Below, one piece after another: positions 13,837-51,227 of a stretch of DNA of 64,000 nt. Origin of the DNA: Anaerolineales bacterium (GTDB taxonomy: Bacteria; Chloroflexota; Anaerolineae; Anaerolineales; UBA11579); assembly GCA_025450445.1 (NCBI GenBank), contig JANWHN010000055.1, positions 1,325 through 65,324 on the forward strand. The letters are read 5' to 3'. The position numbers and the translations under genes were made by a program. The notes under the pieces were generated by a model. That model was given only the letters and a program-made list of their open reading frames with translations. It was not told where the DNA came from and searched no databases. How positions within the stretch are numbered: the stretch's first letter is position 1; every line of letters begins with the position of its first letter.

Positions 13837-13923
13837 GGAGAGGTCGCATAGTCCGGCCTAGTGCGCACGCTTGGAAAGCGTGTATACCGCAAGGTATCGA
13901 GGGTTCGAATCCCTCCCTCTCCG
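13837..13923 (+). tRNA. tRNA-Ser (anticodon GGA), type II with long variable arm
   Basis: Acceptor GGAGAGG/CCTCTCC, anticodon stem-loop CACGC-TTGGAAA-GCGTG, T-arm GAGGG-TTCGAAT-CCCTC. CCA is not encoded. TATAAT lies at 13812-13817. Confidence 0.9.
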
Positions 13924-17591: not shown

Positions 17592-17606
17592 AAGCTCCGA
17601 CTTAAA

Positions 17607-17640
17607 CAAAAAAACCGCAGGCATTGCCTGCGGTTTTTGT
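17607..17640. terminator. Bidirectional intrinsic terminator
   Basis: A-run, stem ACCGCAGGC/GCCTGCGGT, then T-run. Confidence 0.7.
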
Positions 17641-17650
17641 TTGAGCCTCG

Positions 17651-17905
17651 TTATACGCCAACTTCAGTATCTTCATCCTCCATCACCTCTTCGCCTGTTC
17701 GGCGATTCGGATCCGAGGGATCAACCGGCTGGCGATCTTGCCAATTCTGGGTTGTGCTGCTGTTTTGCGAGTTGCGGTTCATGTCCCACTGTTTGTCGGC
17801 CTGAGGCTTGTTAGCCTGAGCGTTGCCCTTTGGCATGGAATTCTTGGGCATCGCAGACTTCTTGGCCTTCCGCGGTTTTTCGCGGGTACCTTTTTTGCCT
17901 GGCAT
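17651..17905 (-). CDS. Small low-complexity protein, basic N-terminus and acidic C-terminus, probably disordered
   Basis: Perfect AAGGAGG Shine-Dalgarno 7 nt upstream of the ATG and a terminator downstream. No recognisable domain. Confidence 0.55.
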   Translation of the reverse strand: MPGKKGTREKPRKAKKSAMPKNSMPKGNAQANKPQADKQWDMNRNSQNSSTTQNWQDRQPVDPSDPNRRTGEEVMEDEDTEVGV

Positions 17906-18034
17906 TCTTCCTCCTTACGAATAGGGAATGATGCTACAAACCCAACAACGCTTCAGCCAAAGGGCTGTTACAAAGCCTTCTCTGGGCTAACGTGGCTATT
18001 AACCAATTAATCATCTTTAGGCTGGTTTAGCCCC

Positions 18035-18063
18035 TTGACCCTGGTTAATACTTGCCCTATAAT
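18035..18063 (+). promoter_or_regulatory. Sigma-70-type promoter TTGACC-N17-TATAAT for the cysteine-operon leader
   Basis: TTGACC at 18035-18040, a 17-nt spacer, TATAAT at 18058-18063. Confidence 0.55.
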
Positions 18064-18088
18064 TTTTTATAAGTTTCTAAGATAAATT

Positions 18089-18136
18089 ATGTTGACCAAA
18101 CGAAATCATTGCTTGTGTTGTGGGCGGGGGAGCTAA
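18089..18136 (+). CDS. Candidate 15-aa leader peptide MLTKRNHCLCCGRGS (3 Cys codons)
   Basis: ATG 18089 to TAA 18134-18136. Cys codons at 18110, 18116 and 18119. The stop codon lies inside the antiterminator arm. Confidence 0.5.
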   Translation: MLTKRNHCLCCGRGS

Positions 18137-18237
18137 CCGCCTACTAACCTCAAAGCGCATTAGCTGCGGCTAACAGAGGACGGGCGGTTGCCACCCCGCA
18201 TGCAATTTTTGCATGCCGCCGGCAAGCCCGTTTTTTT
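18122..18237 (+). promoter_or_regulatory. Terminator/antiterminator (attenuator) of the cysM leader
   Basis: 18124-18141 can pair with 18183-18199 (6 + 7 bp). The latter overlaps the 5' arm of the hairpin ACGGGC(18180)...GCCCGT(18231), which is followed by T7. Confidence 0.5.
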
Positions 18238-18270
18238 ATTTCTGTTAGTCGCTTTTGTTTTTGAGATGAG

Positions 18271-19218
18271 ATGTTAAATACAAAAACAGATCTCCCACCG
18301 ATTAGGAAAAGCATCAGCACCAGCCTGCTGGATGCTGTTGGCAACACGCCATTGCTGCAATTGAATCGTGTCACCGCAGGTTTGCCCAGCGGTGTGGGCG
18401 TATTCGCTAAAGCCGAGTGGTTTAACCCGGGTGGGTCCGTAAAGGATCGGCCGGCTGCAAACATCATTCGTGCTGCTCTTTCATCCGGTGAATTGGGCAA
18501 GGGTAAGGTGCTGCTCGATTCTACGTCTGGAAATATGGGCATTTCATATGCGACTTTGGCTGCCTCTTTTGGAATTCCGGTCACTCTCGCCGTTCCAGCC
18601 AGCGCAAGCCCCGAACGCATGGCAATCCTGGGCATGCTCGGTGCGGAAGTGCATCTTAGCGATGCGCTCGAAGGTTCCGATGGTGCGATCTTGCTGGCAC
18701 GCCAGATGGTTGAAGCGGATCCATCGCGCTACTACTATGCCAATCAATACAACAACCCCGCCAACTGGCAAGCTCATTTCCAAACCACCGGCCCAGAGAT
18801 CTGGCAGCAATTCAACAATGAGATTACCCATTTCGTTATTGGCCTCGGCACAACGGGCACGCTAATGGGTGCTGGACGCTACCTTCGCGACCAAAATCCA
18901 AGCGTCAAAATCATCGGCTTCCAGCCCGACGCGCCGTTCCACGGATTAGAAGGACTCAAACATTTGCCAACTGCTATTCCGCCTGGAATTTACGAACCGG
19001 ATTTTGCCGACGAGATTTTAGAAGCCAGCACAGAAGAAGCCCATGCAATGACCAAGCGTCTCGCCCGCGAAGAAGGCTTATTCGTCGGCGTGTCCTCTGG
19101 CGCCGCCGCGGTTGCTGCCCTGCGCGTCGCCCAACGGCTTAACCACGGAACGGTGGTCACGATATTCCCAGACGCCGGTTACAAATACCTCTCCGAATCT
19201 TTCTGGGGATTTGCGTAA
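18271..19218 (+). CDS. cysM: Cysteine synthase, CysM-like (PLP, sulfur-carrier dependent by context)
   Basis: NPGGSVKDRPA, TSGNMGISYA, GTTGTLMG, VGVSSGAA. Confidence 0.85.
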   Translation: MLNTKTDLPPIRKSISTSLLDAVGNTPLLQLNRVTAGLPSGVGVFAKAEWFNPGGSVKDRPAANIIRAALSSGELGKGKVLLDSTSGNMGISYATLAASFGIPVTLAVPASASPERMAILGMLGAEVHLSDALEGSDGAILLARQMVEADPSRYYYANQYNNPANWQAHFQTTGPEIWQQFNNEITHFVIGLGTTGTLMGAGRYLRDQNPSVKIIGFQPDAPFHGLEGLKHLPTAIPPGIYEPDFADEILEASTEEAHAMTKRLAREEGLFVGVSSGAAAVAALRVAQRLNHGTVVTIFPDAGYKYLSESFWGFA

Positions 19219-19661
19219 TGAAATTGCAGCTATCCGCCGAGCTTCTCGCTCAGATCCATGCCCACGGCGAAGCCGCCTATCCCGAAGAGGGTGCCGGGTT
19301 CTTGCTCGGCAAAGCCGATGGCGAAAGTCGCACTGGCACCCTGATCCTGCCCGCCAACAATTCTCGCGAAGATTCAGCCCGCCAGAATCGATACCAGATT
19401 ACCCCGCAAGAGAATCTAAAAGCTGAGGAACTTGCAACCGCCCGCGGCTTGGATGTCATTGGGATCTTCCATTCGCATCCCGATCATCCTAACCAGCCCT
19501 CGGACTTTGATCGCGAGTGGGCTTTGCCCTGGTATAGCTACCTGATCACAAGTGTGAACAAGGGCAAGGCGGTCGAAACGCGCTCATGGCGACTCAGTGA
19601 CGATCGTTCCAAATATTCTGAAGAAGCAATTGCAATCATAGAATCCACCAAGGAGAATTAA
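19218..19661 (+). CDS. mec: JAMM/MPN+ metalloprotease (Mec+-like)
   Basis: EEGAGFLLG plus HSHPDHPNQPSDFD (ExnHxHx7Sx2D). TAATG coupling on both sides. Confidence 0.85.
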   Translation: MKLQLSAELLAQIHAHGEAAYPEEGAGFLLGKADGESRTGTLILPANNSREDSARQNRYQITPQENLKAEELATARGLDVIGIFHSHPDHPNQPSDFDREWALPWYSYLITSVNKGKAVETRSWRLSDDRSKYSEEAIAIIESTKEN

Positions 19662-20407
19662 TGGCAACTTTAAGAATCCCCACTCCGCTCCGCGCCTATG
19701 CCGGCGGGGCATCTCAACTGGATATCAAATCCGAAAAAGTTTCGGGAGCGCTTGATGAGCTTGTCAAAGCCCATCCTGAGCTGAAGCCGCATTTGTTTCA
19801 GGAATCCGGCGAATTGCGCGCTTTCGTCAACCTCTTCGTGAACGATGAGAATGTGCGCGACCTCGCCGGCGCCGACACGCCGCTCAAATCCGGCGACACC
19901 CTTATGATCCTGCCCAGCATCGCCGGCGGCGTCGATCTTCAAAAGGTCGACCATGCCGCCTTGCGTACGAACCAAGTCTTCATCATTGGTTTGAGTCTCG
20001 CTGCCTTCATCTTGGACGCAGCCTGGTTGGCAGGCTTCGTTGGCCTGGCTATGCTTATCGGCACATTGCTCAAAAAACCCGGCTTCGGCTTTGTCTACCA
20101 AGGTTGGCTGAAGCCCAGCGGTATTCTGAAACCAGACGTGATCGCAGACAATCCTGAGCCGCATCGCTTCGCGCAGGGTTTCGGCGCGGTCGTTGACTTG
20201 GCTGGGTTTGCTTTGCTACTCGTCGGCGCAACGGGTGCCGGTTGGGCTTTGATATGGATCGTTATCTTCCTGGCGGCCCTGAACCTTTTCTTCGGTTTCT
20301 GTGCTGGCTGCGCCGTCTACTACTGGCTCAACCGCCTGCGAGTGCCCGGCTTCGTTAAAGCCGCGCCCGCCGGCTCCTTTCCCGGGCTCCGGCCAAAGGC
20401 AAGCTAG
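19661..20407 (+). CDS. cysO: ThiS/MoaD-like sulfur carrier (CysO-like, residues 1-90 ending Gly-Gly) fused to a DUF4395-like 4-TM membrane domain
   Basis: MATLRIPTPLR...GDTLMILPSIAGG (GG at 19925-19930), then VDLQKVDHAALRTNQ plus hydrophobic helices. Confidence 0.75.
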   Translation: MATLRIPTPLRAYAGGASQLDIKSEKVSGALDELVKAHPELKPHLFQESGELRAFVNLFVNDENVRDLAGADTPLKSGDTLMILPSIAGGVDLQKVDHAALRTNQVFIIGLSLAAFILDAAWLAGFVGLAMLIGTLLKKPGFGFVYQGWLKPSGILKPDVIADNPEPHRFAQGFGAVVDLAGFALLLVGATGAGWALIWIVIFLAALNLFFGFCAGCAVYYWLNRLRVPGFVKAAPAGSFPGLRPKAS

Positions 20408-20874
20408 TGCAAGATATCCTTCTCCGCGCTGGCTGGGCGCTCGCTATTGCAGCTTTGGGATTCCTTGCTTATCTGGCTTGGAATAGCGTCCAGATTGCCC
20501 GCTTGCGTAAGCCTGCCAGCGGTCTCGAGGCTTTTGTTCCCGGCCAGCCCGGCATCCTCTACTTCACTACACCCGATTGCGTGCCATGCAAAACCCAGCA
20601 GCGCCCGGCTTTCCAAAAGCTGACCGAAGGCCTTAGCGTCAAGGTGCAAATTATTGAGATAGATGCAACTCAGCGCCCAGACCTCGCCGATTACTGGGGT
20701 GTGCTTTCTGTGCCCACGACGTTTATCATTGACTCAAAGCTGGAGCCGCGCGCCATCAACCACGGAGTTGCCAGCGCAGAAAAACTGAAAAAGCAAATCG
20801 ACTCGGCCGAAGGCGGGGCTGCGCTCTGGATCCAAGAAAAGCGCGTCGGTTTCGCCAGTGATCGAGAAAGTTAG
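20407..20874 (+). CDS. Membrane-anchored thioredoxin-fold protein (CxxC = CVPC)
   Basis: N-terminal TM helix; FTTPDCVPCK; SVPTTFII (cis-Pro loop). Confidence 0.7.
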   Translation: MQDILLRAGWALAIAALGFLAYLAWNSVQIARLRKPASGLEAFVPGQPGILYFTTPDCVPCKTQQRPAFQKLTEGLSVKVQIIEIDATQRPDLADYWGVLSVPTTFIIDSKLEPRAINHGVASAEKLKKQIDSAEGGAALWIQEKRVGFASDRES

Positions 20875-20882
20875 GAGCATTC

Positions 20883-22052
20883 ATGTTGAACGTTCAGCAA
20901 AGTAACGATCTTTCCCGCGAAGAAGTCCTTCGCTATTCGCGCCACCTACTGATTCCCGAAGTCGGTCTCGCCGGCCAGCGCAAACTTAAGGCCTCGTCCG
21001 TCTTGGTCATCGGCACAGGTGGTTTGGGCTCACCAGTCGCCATGTACCTGGCCGCGGCCGGGGTGGGGCGGATTGGTCTCGTTGATTACGACGTTGTCGA
21101 TTTCTCCAACTTGCAGCGCCAGGTCATCCACGGCACTTCGAAACTTGGCAAGCTAAAAGTTGAATCTGCCAAAGAACGCATTCTCGATATCAATCCTTCC
21201 GTCCAGGTCGAGGTCTATAACGTTCCCTTTACTTCAGCCAACGCGCTGAGCATCGCCGAAGGCTATGAGCTCGTCATCGACGGCACCGATAATTTCCCGA
21301 CCCGCTATTTGGTAAACGATGTGTGCGTCAAGCTGGGGATTCCAAATGTCTACGGCTCTATTTTTCGGTTCGATGGCCAGGTCAGCGTGTTCGACGGTCA
21401 GCAAGGTCCTTGCTATCGCTGCCTCTTCCCCGAGCCACCGCCGCCCGGTCTCGTCCCCTCGTGCGCGGAGGGTGGGGTGCTTGGCGTGTTGCCCGGCATC
21501 ATTGGCTCGATGCAAGCAAGCGAAGGTCTCAAATTGCTGCTTGGAATCGGCGAACCCTTGCGCGGCAAACTGCTGCTCTTCAACGCGCTCGACATGACCT
21601 TCGATTTTGTCAAGCTGCGCAAGAATCCAAATTGCGCCGTGTGCAGTCTCCCCAGCGAAAAAATTGAATTGATCGATTACGAAGCGTTCTGCGGCGTTCC
21701 CGCACACGACCACGAAGAGGCGAACATGGAAAATCAATATGAGATCGGCCCCAAAGAATTGGCCGAACAAATGAAGAACGGCCACAACATCAAGTTGATA
21801 GATGTGCGGGAGCCGCACGAGCTGCAGATCTCGCAGATCGACGGCGCCAAGCTCATCCCGCTCGGCGAAGTTGCCGGGCGTCTCTCCGAACTGGATACAG
21901 CCGACGAGCTCGTCGTCTTCTGCCGGACCGGCGGCCGCTCCGCTCGCGCCGTTGAACTCATGCTGTCCGCCGGCTTCCGCAAAGTGAAAAACTTGCGTGG
22001 CGGTATTAACTCCTGGGCTGAGCAAGTCGATCCTAGCCTGCCCAAGTACTAA
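20883..22052 (+). CDS. moeZ: MoeZ/MoeB-type adenylyltransferase-sulfurtransferase (E1-like domain + C-terminal rhodanese)
   Basis: RYSRHLLIPEVG, GTGGLGSP, CYRCLFP...CAEGGVLG; rhodanese active-site loop FCRTGGRS. Confidence 0.9.
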   Translation: MLNVQQSNDLSREEVLRYSRHLLIPEVGLAGQRKLKASSVLVIGTGGLGSPVAMYLAAAGVGRIGLVDYDVVDFSNLQRQVIHGTSKLGKLKVESAKERILDINPSVQVEVYNVPFTSANALSIAEGYELVIDGTDNFPTRYLVNDVCVKLGIPNVYGSIFRFDGQVSVFDGQQGPCYRCLFPEPPPPGLVPSCAEGGVLGVLPGIIGSMQASEGLKLLLGIGEPLRGKLLLFNALDMTFDFVKLRKNPNCAVCSLPSEKIELIDYEAFCGVPAHDHEEANMENQYEIGPKELAEQMKNGHNIKLIDVREPHELQISQIDGAKLIPLGEVAGRLSELDTADELVVFCRTGGRSARAVELMLSAGFRKVKNLRGGINSWAEQVDPSLPKY

Positions 22053-22080: not shown

Positions 22081-22914
22081 ATGGCGCGAGTACGTGAAAA
22101 GAAAACCATGCTTGTTGTGCTCGCCCATCCTGATGACGAGTCCTTCGGCATGGGGGGCACGATCGCGTATTACGCCGCCAAAGGCGTCGCCGTGCACCTG
22201 TTGTGTGCAACCCGCGGGGAAGCGGGCACGGTCGAGTCGCAATTCCTAAAAAAGCACAAAACAATTGCCAAGCTGCGCGAAGCCGAGCTAAGTTGCGCGG
22301 CTAAAGCTCTTGGATTGGCCAGCGTCATTTATCTTGGCTATCGCGATTCCGGCATGGCTGGCTCCGCCGACAATCGCAACCCCGCTTCGTTATTCCGCGC
22401 CCCAGTCGATAAAGTCGCCGAAAAGATCGTGCGCCACATCCGCCGCCTTCGACCTCAAGTCGTGGTCACCTTTGATCCAGTGGGCGGCTATCACCACCCC
22501 GACCATATCGCCATCCATAAAGCGACCGTCAGAGCCTTCAGTTCGGCAAAAGCTTTCAATCATGGATCCCAGCTTTATCACACCGCCCTGAACCGGCGTC
22601 GCCTGCGTTGGATCGTTTTCATGATGCGCCTCTCCGGCAAAGATCCCACCCAGGTCGGCCGCAACAAAGATATCGACCTGACCGCGCTGACCCGCGACAA
22701 GGACACACCCGCCCACGTCACCATCAACTACCGCAGCGTCCGCGCCCGCAAAGAGCAGGCCGATGCCTGCCATGCCAGCCAGCTCGAGGGACGCTTCACC
22801 CGCGTCACCCTAATGGACATTTATTGGCGCATCTTCGGCCGGTCGGATACCTTTACTCGCATGGTGCCTGCGACTACGAATGGCTACCACTCGACCGACC
22901 TGTTTGCCGCTTAA
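22081..22914 (+). CDS. LmbE/PIG-L family N-acetylglucosaminyl deacetylase
   Basis: VLAHPDDESFGMGGT, YRDSG, HPDH. Confidence 0.85.
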   Translation: MARVREKKTMLVVLAHPDDESFGMGGTIAYYAAKGVAVHLLCATRGEAGTVESQFLKKHKTIAKLREAELSCAAKALGLASVIYLGYRDSGMAGSADNRNPASLFRAPVDKVAEKIVRHIRRLRPQVVVTFDPVGGYHHPDHIAIHKATVRAFSSAKAFNHGSQLYHTALNRRRLRWIVFMMRLSGKDPTQVGRNKDIDLTALTRDKDTPAHVTINYRSVRARKEQADACHASQLEGRFTRVTLMDIYWRIFGRSDTFTRMVPATTNGYHSTDLFAA

Positions 22915-50855: not shown

Positions 50856-50928
50856 CGCTCTCGCCGCGACTCGAACGCGGGACCCTTTGCTCCGCAAGCA
50901 AATGCTCTATCCACTGAGCTACGAGAGC
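50856..50928 (-). tRNA. tRNA-Arg (anticodon GCG)
   Basis: Reverse complement GCTCTCG-TA-GCTC-AGTGGATA-GAGC-A-TTTGC-TTGCGGA-GCAAA-GGGTC-CCGCG-TTCGAGT-CGCGG-CGAGAGC-G. Confidence 0.85.
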
Positions 50929-50982
50929 TTGCGAGCCGCTATGCGGCTCGCGTTGGAGTTTCGTGATTTTCGAAACTCCAAC
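50929..50982 (-). repeat. Two-hairpin element, copy C, directly abutting the 5' end of tRNA-Arg
   Basis: Minus strand: TTGGAGTTTCG-aaaatca-CGAAACTCCAA followed by CGCGAGCCGC-ata-GCGGCTCGCA. Confidence 0.6.
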
Positions 50983-51020
50983 GATCTGAATTGTAACCAG
51001 CGAGGGTTATAAATTCAAGG

Positions 51021-51112
51021 CGGGGAGGGAGGGATTCGAACCCTCGTCCGAGGAAAACCCCCGGAACCCACTTAGCAGGCGGGCGCACTAGACCGGGCTA
51101 TGCGACCTCCCC
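51021..51112 (-). tRNA. tRNA-Ser (anticodon GCU), type II
   Basis: Acceptor GGGGAGG/CCTCCCC, anticodon stem-loop CCCGC-CTGCTAA-GTGGG, long variable arm, T-loop TTCGAAT. Confidence 0.9.
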
Positions 51113-51139
51113 GAGTTAACGGTGCTTGATTGTATTACA

Positions 51140-51227
<88 letters not shown>

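Follow-up and report, generated by a model that had tools for sequence, protein, structure and literature searches.

The cysM operon and its leader

The DNA analysed here, referred to as the window, is a 64,000-nucleotide stretch of contig JANWHN010000055.1 from an Anaerolineales bacterium (Chloroflexota). It holds a cysteine-biosynthesis operon, cysM-mec-cysO-trx-moeZ, preceded by a leader that carries a short open reading frame (sORF) with cysteine codons and a series of RNA segments able to pair in more than one way. We think it likely that this leader is a ribosome-mediated transcription attenuator of the trp/his type that senses the supply of cysteinyl-tRNA. The features of the leader and the operon, in 5′ to 3′ order, are as follows.

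18035–18063 (+): sigma-70-type promoter, −35 TTGACC at 18035–18040, N17 spacer, −10 TATAAT at 18058–18063
18089–18136 (+): leader sORF, 15 codons and TAA, product MLTKRNHCLCCGRGS; frame kept across relatives
18110–18121 (+): putative regulatory codons TGC-TTG-TGT-TGT; conserved pair TGC 18110–18112 and TGT 18116–18118
18117–18127 (+): segment 1, the 5′ arm of helix 1:2, GTTGTGGGCGG; present in minimum free energy (MFE) structures and in the partner-swap test, with GGCGG:CCGCC conserved
18135–18148 (+): segment 2, starting within the stop codon
18166–18178 (+): L, the 5′ strand of a long-range helix, GCGGCTAACAGAG, inside the antiterminator loop; partner 18240–18252
18179–18199 (+): segment 3, with the parts GACGGGC, GGCGGTT and CCCCGC
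18179–18237 (+): predicted terminator 1, a long hairpin at 18179–18232 and then T7 at 18231–18237; −31 kcal/mol
18240–18252 (+): L′, the 3′ strand of the long-range helix, TTCTGTTAGTCGC; partner 18166–18178
18253–18262 (+): second U-run, TTTTGTTTTT, directly 3′ of L′
18271–22052 (+): operon from cysM to the MoeZ-like gene, its first gene 33 nt past the T7 run
18271–19218 (+): cysM (PALP/CysM)
19218–19661 (+): JAB/Mec-like gene
19661–20407 (+): ThiS/CysO-like domain fused to DUF4395
20407–20874 (+): thioredoxin-like gene
20883–22052 (+): MoeZ-like gene, ThiF and rhodanese

The promoter scored 11/12 in a promoter scan and was the sole promoter-like site on the + strand within 17600–18600; transcription is expected to start near 18070, ~18 nt 5′ of the sORF. 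The first-pass annotation, made from the letters of the window alone, had picked out both this promoter (TTGACC-N17-TATAAT) and the sORF (ATG 18089, TAA 18134–18136), and we found each in the sequence as described. It had also placed cysM 33 nt past the T-run and named the genes behind it, which family matches bear out, and it had remarked that the sORF lacks a Shine-Dalgarno (SD) sequence; reading the window 5′ of the ATG, we likewise found none. All three Cys codons to which it drew attention (TGC 18110, TGT 18116 and TGT 18119) are present in the window, but only TGC 18110 and TGT 18116 proved to be conserved.

Three helices of the leader, 1:2, 2:3 (the antiterminator) and 3:4 (the terminator), are mutually exclusive. 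In the window, segment 1 overlaps GCGGGG (18124–18129), which is also the 5′ strand of an outer antiterminator helix. One part of segment 2, CCGCCTAC-AAC (18137–18148), pairs with segment 1, and another, AACCGCC(T) (18135–18142), pairs with segment 3. Within segment 3, GACGGGC (18179–18185) is the 5′ base of terminator 1 and has GCCCGTT (18226–18232) as its partner, GGCGGTT (18183–18189) is the 3′ strand of the antiterminator, paired with AACCGCC (18135–18141), and CCCCGC (18194–18199) pairs with the GCGGGG of the sORF. A complementarity between 18124–18141 and 18183–18199 (A and B) had been proposed at the outset, and RNAfold recovered exactly this 6+7(8) bp antiterminator helix on RNA ending at 18199. 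Folding 18070–18240 gave a 5′ hairpin that includes the Cys codons together with the long terminator hairpin foreseen in the first-pass annotation (MFE −57.9 kcal/mol, z = −2.06 vs shuffles). The inner pairs of this terminator are TTGCC:GGCAA and GCATGCAA:TTGCATGC; its long, interrupted stem kept a simple terminator scan from detecting it.

Helix 1:2, the long-range helix L:L′ and the second U-run had gone unremarked before. L:L′ is 13 bp in the window (11–13 bp overall), encloses terminator 1 and precedes the second U-run. A small hairpin, TTAGC-tgcg-GCTAA (18160–18173), had been described at this place instead; its letters are there in the window, but it is not conserved, and the corresponding stretch in relatives is the L strand.

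Conservation of the leader across Anaerolineae

We fetched 80 loci from GTDB species representatives by similarity of the CysM protein and not of the leader; all are Anaerolineae (Chloroflexota), at 64–73% identity. The 400 nt 5′ of each cysM were searched with a regular expression, and the loci with a covariance model built from the 5′ half of the leader. When the hits of both were combined, a leader was present 5′ of cysM in 79/80 loci, the exception being L020, where the contig ends 87 nt 5′ of cysM. Such recurrence puts the arrangement beyond chance. The covariance model gave 79 matches in 81 sources, always as a single copy, that of the window being at 18107–18202, and neither search returned a second copy in the window or in the neighbourhood of any of the 80 loci.

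The attenuation proposal hinged on the sORF and its Cys codons being kept in homologous leaders. We found that the sORF, which is 11–17 codons long, ends in the near-universal tail C-x-C-x-[RG]-R-G-x-stop, written in codons as TGC NNN TGT NNN nGG CGG GGn NNN TAR, and that the C-x-C pattern is present in 78/78 genome leaders. In 73/78 leaders an ATG stands in frame no more than 15 codons upstream and is not cut off by a stop, vs 1/78 in each of frames +1 and +2, and an in-frame ATG, GTG or TTG is present in all 78. The modal position of the ATG is 6 codons 5′ of the first Cys (41/78), and the stop codon falls 8 codons past the first Cys (TAA 55, TAG 21, TGA 1), a single leader being one codon shorter. 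The codon between both Cys codons and the last sense codon are variable at all three positions. The columns without any change in the alignment of 78 leaders are those of both Cys codons, of GCG in GGCGG, of one G in segment 3 and of CG in CCCCGC; outside helix nucleotides, the two Cys codons are the sole invariant columns.

An SD-like motif is found in 20 leaders, mostly GGAG 6–10 nt before a start codon that leaves just three codons to the first Cys, and this GGAG is found in one subclade. Locus L042, from a metagenome-assembled genome assigned to Anaerolinea thermophila, has its leader with a GGGAG SD. The other 58 leaders, including the window type, have a conserved TTGACAA-N16/17-TAAAAT promoter, its −10 ending 22–24 nt 5′ of the ATG, and a short 5′ untranslated region (UTR) without an SD. 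The conserved −10 box of the homologous leaders ends 22–25 nt 5′ of the sORF ATG, and the mRNA is therefore not leaderless.

Two departures from the common pattern were seen. In one leader (L063:3186-3296) the sORF tail has lost a base (TGT A-AA GGC), and the resulting frameshift lengthens the ORF to 25 codons, with the RNA helices kept; this is either a sequencing error in a metagenome-assembled genome or a decaying copy. A subset of leaders (L005, L012, L015, L016, L019, L024, L025, L028, L029, L031, L047, L053, L054, L059 and L080) has an extra GC-rich, hairpin-forming insert of 50–110 nt between L′/U-run 2 and the cysM SD, as in L053 (GGCGCTCTCCAGCGCTGGCAAGGCAAGAGAGCGTCGCTTGCGC). The insert had no match in Rfam and might represent either a repeat element or a second module for regulation.

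Covariation of the competing helices

Across the relatives the leader runs, 5′ to 3′, from segment 1 (GGCGGGG) and the stop codon through segment 2 (CC(A)CCGCC and CTGAG), L, CTCAG with segment 3 (ACGGTGG..), CCCCGC, a variable inner hairpin, segment 4 (..CCGTCT), U-run 1, L′, U-run 2 and the SD to cysM; in the main clade L is GCAGTCAACGG and L′ is CCGTTGACTGC. Because shifts of register between clades hampered the detection of covariation in 1:2 and 2:3 on a plain MAFFT alignment, we used an alignment-free test and a covariance-model alignment. The alignment-free test, here called partner swap, compares the duplex energies of strands with their own partners against those with swapped partners over 2000 permutations. 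For each of five helices the observed value lay beyond those of all 2000 permutations: 1:2 (z = −6.2; core −7.5), the antiterminator 2:3 (z = −11.2), GCGGGG:CCCCGC (z = −4.8), the terminator 3:4 (z = −10.7) and L:L′ (z = −16.3).

Formal pair counts agree with this for the antiterminator and for the outer stem. On the covariance-model alignment, 82.9% of antiterminator cells were paired vs 78.2 ± 0.5 when shuffled (0/500 as high) and at most 54.8 when slid, and double-sided changes occurred at 12/17 pairs vs 6.6 ± 1.1. L:L′ and the terminator base, on plain MAFFT, showed 81.5% paired vs 73.6%, double-sided changes at 21/24 pairs and 192 compensatory cells vs 60 ± 11. RNAalifold alone recovered L:L′, with compensatory changes at 11/11 pairs; 92.5% of the cells of this helix are paired, and L:L′ is the best-supported helix of the leader. 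The first-pass annotation had asked whether the A:B and B:terminator complementarities co-vary among relatives, and by partner swap and by pair counts both do.

Individual leaders illustrate the exchanges, among them GCGAGAT:ATCTCGC in L076, GCGGAGT:ACTCCGC in L018 and CTACCG:CGGTAG in L002, with AGCCAACG:CGTTGGCT and GCAGTCAGCAG:CTGCTGACTGC as further compensatory pairs. Leaders of the rhodanese type (see below) have GGACAG:CTGTCC in segments 3 and 4 in place of the GACGG:CCGTC of cysM leaders. U-run 1 is present in 72/78 leaders and U-run 2 in 68/78; 63/78 have both and 1/78 has neither, so that 77/78 have a hairpin with at least one U-run. Thermoflexus-type leaders have no U-run 1, and their terminator is therefore L:L′ stacked on 3:4, with a single U-run.

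Leader targets and codon choice in metagenomes

We searched metagenome contigs by a pattern that leaves the wobble of each Cys codon free (TGY), and it returned at least 120 loci. When the first 100 were checked with the covariance model, 94 matched. One of these, L180, is doubtful (22.9 bits); it and the six non-matching loci are GC-rich coding DNA, and the six are chance hits. Among the 120 matches listed, the first gene past the leader is CysM in at least 77 loci, a two-domain rhodanese followed by SufE in at least 18 and DUF4395 in at least 4, with 14 lying on contigs too short to tell and 7 not being a leader. All identified targets among the matches listed belong to sulfur or cysteine metabolism, which fits sensing of the cognate amino acid and suggests, from gene context, that the leader marks a sulfur/cysteine regulon.

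The rhodanese-type leader has an sORF tail ..YCSCLWRGS and precedes genes for a two-domain rhodanese of 279 aa and a SufE-like protein of 144 aa (L081, L104, L110, L111, L118, L121, L132, L142, L158, L161, L171, L174, L184, L191, L199 and others). A free-standing DUF4395 gene comes first after the Cys leader in other metagenome loci, for example L137 and L159, and in the window DUF4395 is fused to ThiS/MoaD (19661–20407). Leader context and fusion tie DUF4395 to cysteine and sulfur-carrier metabolism.

The choice of Cys codon is close to absolute. The first is TGC in 78/78 genome leaders and in 92/93 metagenome leaders among the matches listed, the second is TGT in 78/78 and 93/93, respectively, and additional Cys codons in leaders are all TGT. 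The long ORFs of the window use TGC 98 times vs TGT 31 times, and so at the second position the leader fixes the minor, wobble-read codon. It is speculation that UGU is the more sensitive 'hungry' codon, which would give a kinetic reason for the fixed choice. We also considered base pairing of the Cys codons as the cause of the fixed wobble and rejected it: their pairing within helix 1:2 is moderate and clade-dependent (partner-swap z = −2.7, pairing probability 0.64–0.78), with non-significant formal counts.

Folding with a ribosome on the sORF and a proposed mechanism

We computed partition functions for the 78 leaders with a ribosome footprint, from −15 to +12 of the A site, forced unpaired, and recorded the probability that segment 3 lies in the terminator on RNA ending just 5′ of L′. 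This probability was 0.71 over all 78 leaders (0.82 in the window) with no ribosome, 0.40 (0.02) with the first Cys codon in the A site, 0.64 (0.66) with the second Cys codon in the A site and 0.95 (1.0) with a ribosome at the stop codon; in the window, the ribosome on the first Cys codon gave the antiterminator a probability of 0.95. The trp/his-style logic put forward in the first-pass annotation thus finds support from masked folding, in which a ribosome at the stop codon leads to the terminator and one at the first Cys codon to the antiterminator, as well as from the comparative data, and it is thermodynamically plausible. On RNA ending right after CCCCGC, which has no 3′ arm of the terminator, the antiterminator formed in 73–75/78 leaders, a number that fell to 26/78 when a ribosome stood at the stop codon; in the window its probability was then 0. 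What discriminates is therefore whether a ribosome has reached the stop and covers segment 2, as the first-pass annotation had argued.

In the mechanism we propose, segment 1, in the 3′ half of the sORF, would pair with segment 2 just past the stop codon; segment 2 and the GCGGGG of the sORF could alternatively pair with segment 3 to give a long antiterminator, and segment 3 could alternatively provide the 5′ arm of the long terminator hairpin with its U-run. The sORF would be translated in vivo. With cysteine plentiful, a ribosome at the stop codon would cover segments 1 and 2, segment 3 would enter the terminator, and transcription would stop before cysM. With Cys-tRNA scarce, the ribosome would stall with UGC or UGU in the A site, breaking 1:2 and leaving segment 2 free; the antiterminator would form once segment 3 had been made, and RNA polymerase would read into cysM-mec-cysO-trx-moeZ, in dependence on the charging of Cys-tRNA. 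In the case of no translation, helix 1:2 would keep segment 2, and the terminator would form. We infer a further role for L:L′, which would lengthen the terminator stem outward and, with the second U-run after it, make a nested back-up terminator under the same antiterminator, so that transcripts might end at either U-run.

Points against the mechanism and alternative explanations

Several observations weigh against attenuation by a ribosome that senses Cys-tRNA. Most leaders, that of the window included, have no SD for the sORF, and initiation would have to take place on a short, A-rich 5′ UTR of ~15–18 nt. Formal covariation is weak for helix 1:2, because its core GGCGG:CCGCC never varies. 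Just two Cys codons are conserved, with a free codon between them, and almost no change is seen at their wobble positions (TGC first, TGT second); selection purely at the amino-acid level does not predict this, so there is some extra constraint at the nucleotide level. A stall at the second Cys codon still leaves a mean terminator probability of 0.64 at equilibrium, so that the model relies on co-transcriptional kinetics. Once L′ is included, moreover, the stem of L:L′ and 3:4 beats the antiterminator under every condition (≥0.94, equilibrium), so that, if the second U-run terminates, escape has to be a matter of kinetics; this putative step is the weakest part of the model.

Some of these same observations are what a structured RNA switch would lead one to expect, that is, a riboswitch or a protein- or RNA-binding leader that drives the same terminator and antiterminator through a sulfur metabolite or factor, with the sORF incidental or secondary. 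Several helices co-vary in this highly structured leader, both Cys codons and the CGG codon keep a wobble that is fixed as a nucleotide, and the SD is absent from most leaders. The sORF, however, behaves as a reading frame: the start codon is frame-specific (73/78 vs 1/78), the stop is held at one position whether as TAA, TAG or TGA, one subclade has a correctly spaced GGAG, and the inter-Cys codon and the last sense codon vary freely at all three positions, while internal-loop and junction nucleotides are unconserved. The first-pass annotation had itself raised a riboswitch as an alternative, and no riboswitch or T-box model matched. Rfam searches at gathering thresholds on the whole window and 16 homologous loci, and at E ≤ 10 on 17900–18320, returned only tRNAs and noise, and no known riboswitch, T-box or leader family therefore fits. 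No riboswitch is known to respond to cysteine, and we regard an RNA switch as distinctly unlikely. It is also unlikely that the switch depends on translation but not on Cys-tRNA, with the sORF reporting general translation capacity, or with a nascent C-x-C...RG arrest or a redox- or metal-sensing peptide setting the dwell at the stop codon. In favour of such a switch, C-x-C and the R-G-x-stop tail are kept at the peptide level too, the Cys codons number only two, and their synonymous form is fixed. Yet the conserved R-G codons supply the 5′ strand of a helix that co-varies, and the change in L076 (GCGAGAT:ATCTCGC) turns the peptide into T-R-D, the last residue varies (S, L, W, R, K, P), the N-terminus is variable in length and sequence, and the regulated operons are specifically those of cysteine and sulfur transfer, as sensing of the cognate amino acid would have it.

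Highly improbable, in our judgement, are translational attenuation of the mycobacterial kind, in which the sORF would gate the cysM ribosome-binding site, and a T-box-like sensor of tRNA-Cys with UGC as its specifier. The former has a precedent in mycobacterial Cys sORFs, which work in this way (bioRxiv 10.1101/834739), and L′ and the second U-run do lie just 5′ of the cysM SD. No conserved pairing reaches the SD or the start codon, however, the distance from L′ to the ATG ranges from ~17 to >100 nt, and terminators of hairpin and U-run are kept in 77/78 leaders. A T-box could account for the invariant UGC, like a specifier codon, and for a GGUGG..CGCG-like stretch in the leader. We rejected it on the grounds that the T-box model RF00230 had no match at E ≤ 10 in 17900–18320, nor at the gathering score in 16 other loci, that there is no space for Stem I, the distance from the UGC to segment 3 being only ~70 nt, and that the codon lies within a conserved ORF.

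Other features around the operon

Directly 3′ of the MoeZ-like gene lies a gene for a PIG-L family deacetylase (22081–22914, + strand), whose best NCBIfam matches are MshB/Mca and BshB, all under cut-off; its position hints at a low-molecular-weight thiol pathway tied to the operon. Many Anaerolineae loci have a second PALP (CysK/CysM-like) paralog ~3–4 kb 3′ of cysM on the same strand (L002 at ~7966, L019 at ~7078, L029, L033, L054, L055, L061, L071, L079 and others). Divergent from the leader promoter in the window is an ORF for an 84-aa Lys/Gln/Asn-rich product (17651–17905, − strand) that has a strong GGAGGA SD and no match in Pfam or NCBIfam. The window has four tRNA genes, one alone at 13837–13923 (+) and three clustered at 50856–51227 (−).

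Relation to known attenuators and significance

Like the trp, his, leu, thr, ilv and pheA attenuators of E. coli and Salmonella, the leader has a short ORF with codons for the end product, exclusive helices 1:2, 2:3 and 3:4 of which 3:4 is a predicted intrinsic terminator, and a stop codon placed such that a terminating ribosome would mask segment 2; only two regulatory codons are present, as in the trp leader. It differs from them in being for cysteine, in belonging to Chloroflexota (Anaerolineae) and in mostly lacking an SD. Its antiterminator has a second helix to the last codons of the sORF (GCGGGG:CCCCGC), its terminator sits inside a co-varying long-range helix with a second U-run after it, and its synonymous codons are fixed.

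In mycobacteria, polycysteine leaderless sORFs form a 'Cys ribulon' (Canestrari et al. 2020; bioRxiv 10.1101/834739; Mol Microbiol 114:93), and there as here Cys-codon sORFs stand ahead of several cysteine and sulfur operons. The targets overlap, with the cysA2 thiosulfate sulfurtransferase operon, which opens with a gene for a small hydrophobic protein, and cysK/cysE in mycobacteria, and rhodanese-SufE, DUF4395 and cysM-cysO in Anaerolineae. This parallel suggests convergent evolution, and the small hydrophobic Ms5788, encoded first in that cysA2 operon, may be a counterpart of DUF4395. Mycobacterial sORFs are leaderless, carry 2–8 consecutive C-terminal Cys codons and act by SD sequestration with no intrinsic terminator (bioRxiv 10.1101/834739), whereas the leader described here is not leaderless, has no conserved SD pairing and shows no sequence similarity to them. 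The authors of that study described cysteine attenuation mediated by an upstream ORF (uORF) as hitherto undescribed in 2020 (bioRxiv 10.1101/834739).

Another counterpart is the uORFC-8-2 motif 5′ of cysS in Rhodobacterales, a predicted ribosome-mediated attenuator (Brewer et al. 2021, PMC8632094), which likewise carries a uORF whose two conserved Cys codons lie in a stem, ahead of a terminator and U-run. It differs in regulating Cys-tRNA synthetase and not biosynthesis, in occurring in alpha-proteobacteria and in having two stems only, and its Cys codons are in tandem at 14–15, mostly UGC and some UGU, as against C-x-C at positions 4–10 here. Candidate cys leader peptides have also been described in Actinobacteria, with runs of Cys codons near the stop 5′ of cys/cbs operons (Seliverstov et al. 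2005, PMC1262725). They too are short ORFs with Cys codons; unlike the Anaerolineae leader they have no conserved hairpins or terminators, for which reason the mechanism was left open and Rho-dependent termination suggested (PMC1262725). Our literature search found no cysteine attenuator in Chloroflexi or for cysM/cysO. The leader is a class-wide Anaerolineae family that is new and of a known regulatory kind. Unusual in it are the co-varying helix that encloses the terminator ahead of a second U-run and the fixed synonymous Cys codons.

A fuller version of the attenuation model would join one antiterminator over two nested terminators, a required UGC-then-UGU order and a class-wide Anaerolineae 'Cys ribulon'; this combination we put forward only tentatively. 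The inner terminator may be the 3:4 hairpin with U-run 1, and the outer may arise when L:L′ closes before U-run 2. The codon order could mean that the wobble-read, minor UGU is the true sensing position, or it could reflect a sequence-specific contact. The ribulon of cysM-cysO, rhodanese-SufE and DUF4395 may be independent of the mycobacterial one and convergent on the same targets.

If the model holds, a cysteine-biosynthesis operon would for the first time have a well-supported leader-peptide attenuator of the classical, terminator-based type. The nested double terminator would be an unusual architecture, the fixed UGC/UGU choice would offer a clean natural test of codon-specific decoding in attenuation, and the compact leader (~180 nt) could serve as a cysteine-responsive genetic part. 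The regulon, which takes in the CysM/CysO sulfur-carrier pathway, rhodanese-SufE and DUF4395, would hint at the functions of DUF4395 and of the thioredoxin-like and MshB-like genes in the operon. The attenuator would also extend this logic to Chloroflexota (Anaerolineae), a phylum with essentially uncharacterised cis-regulation.

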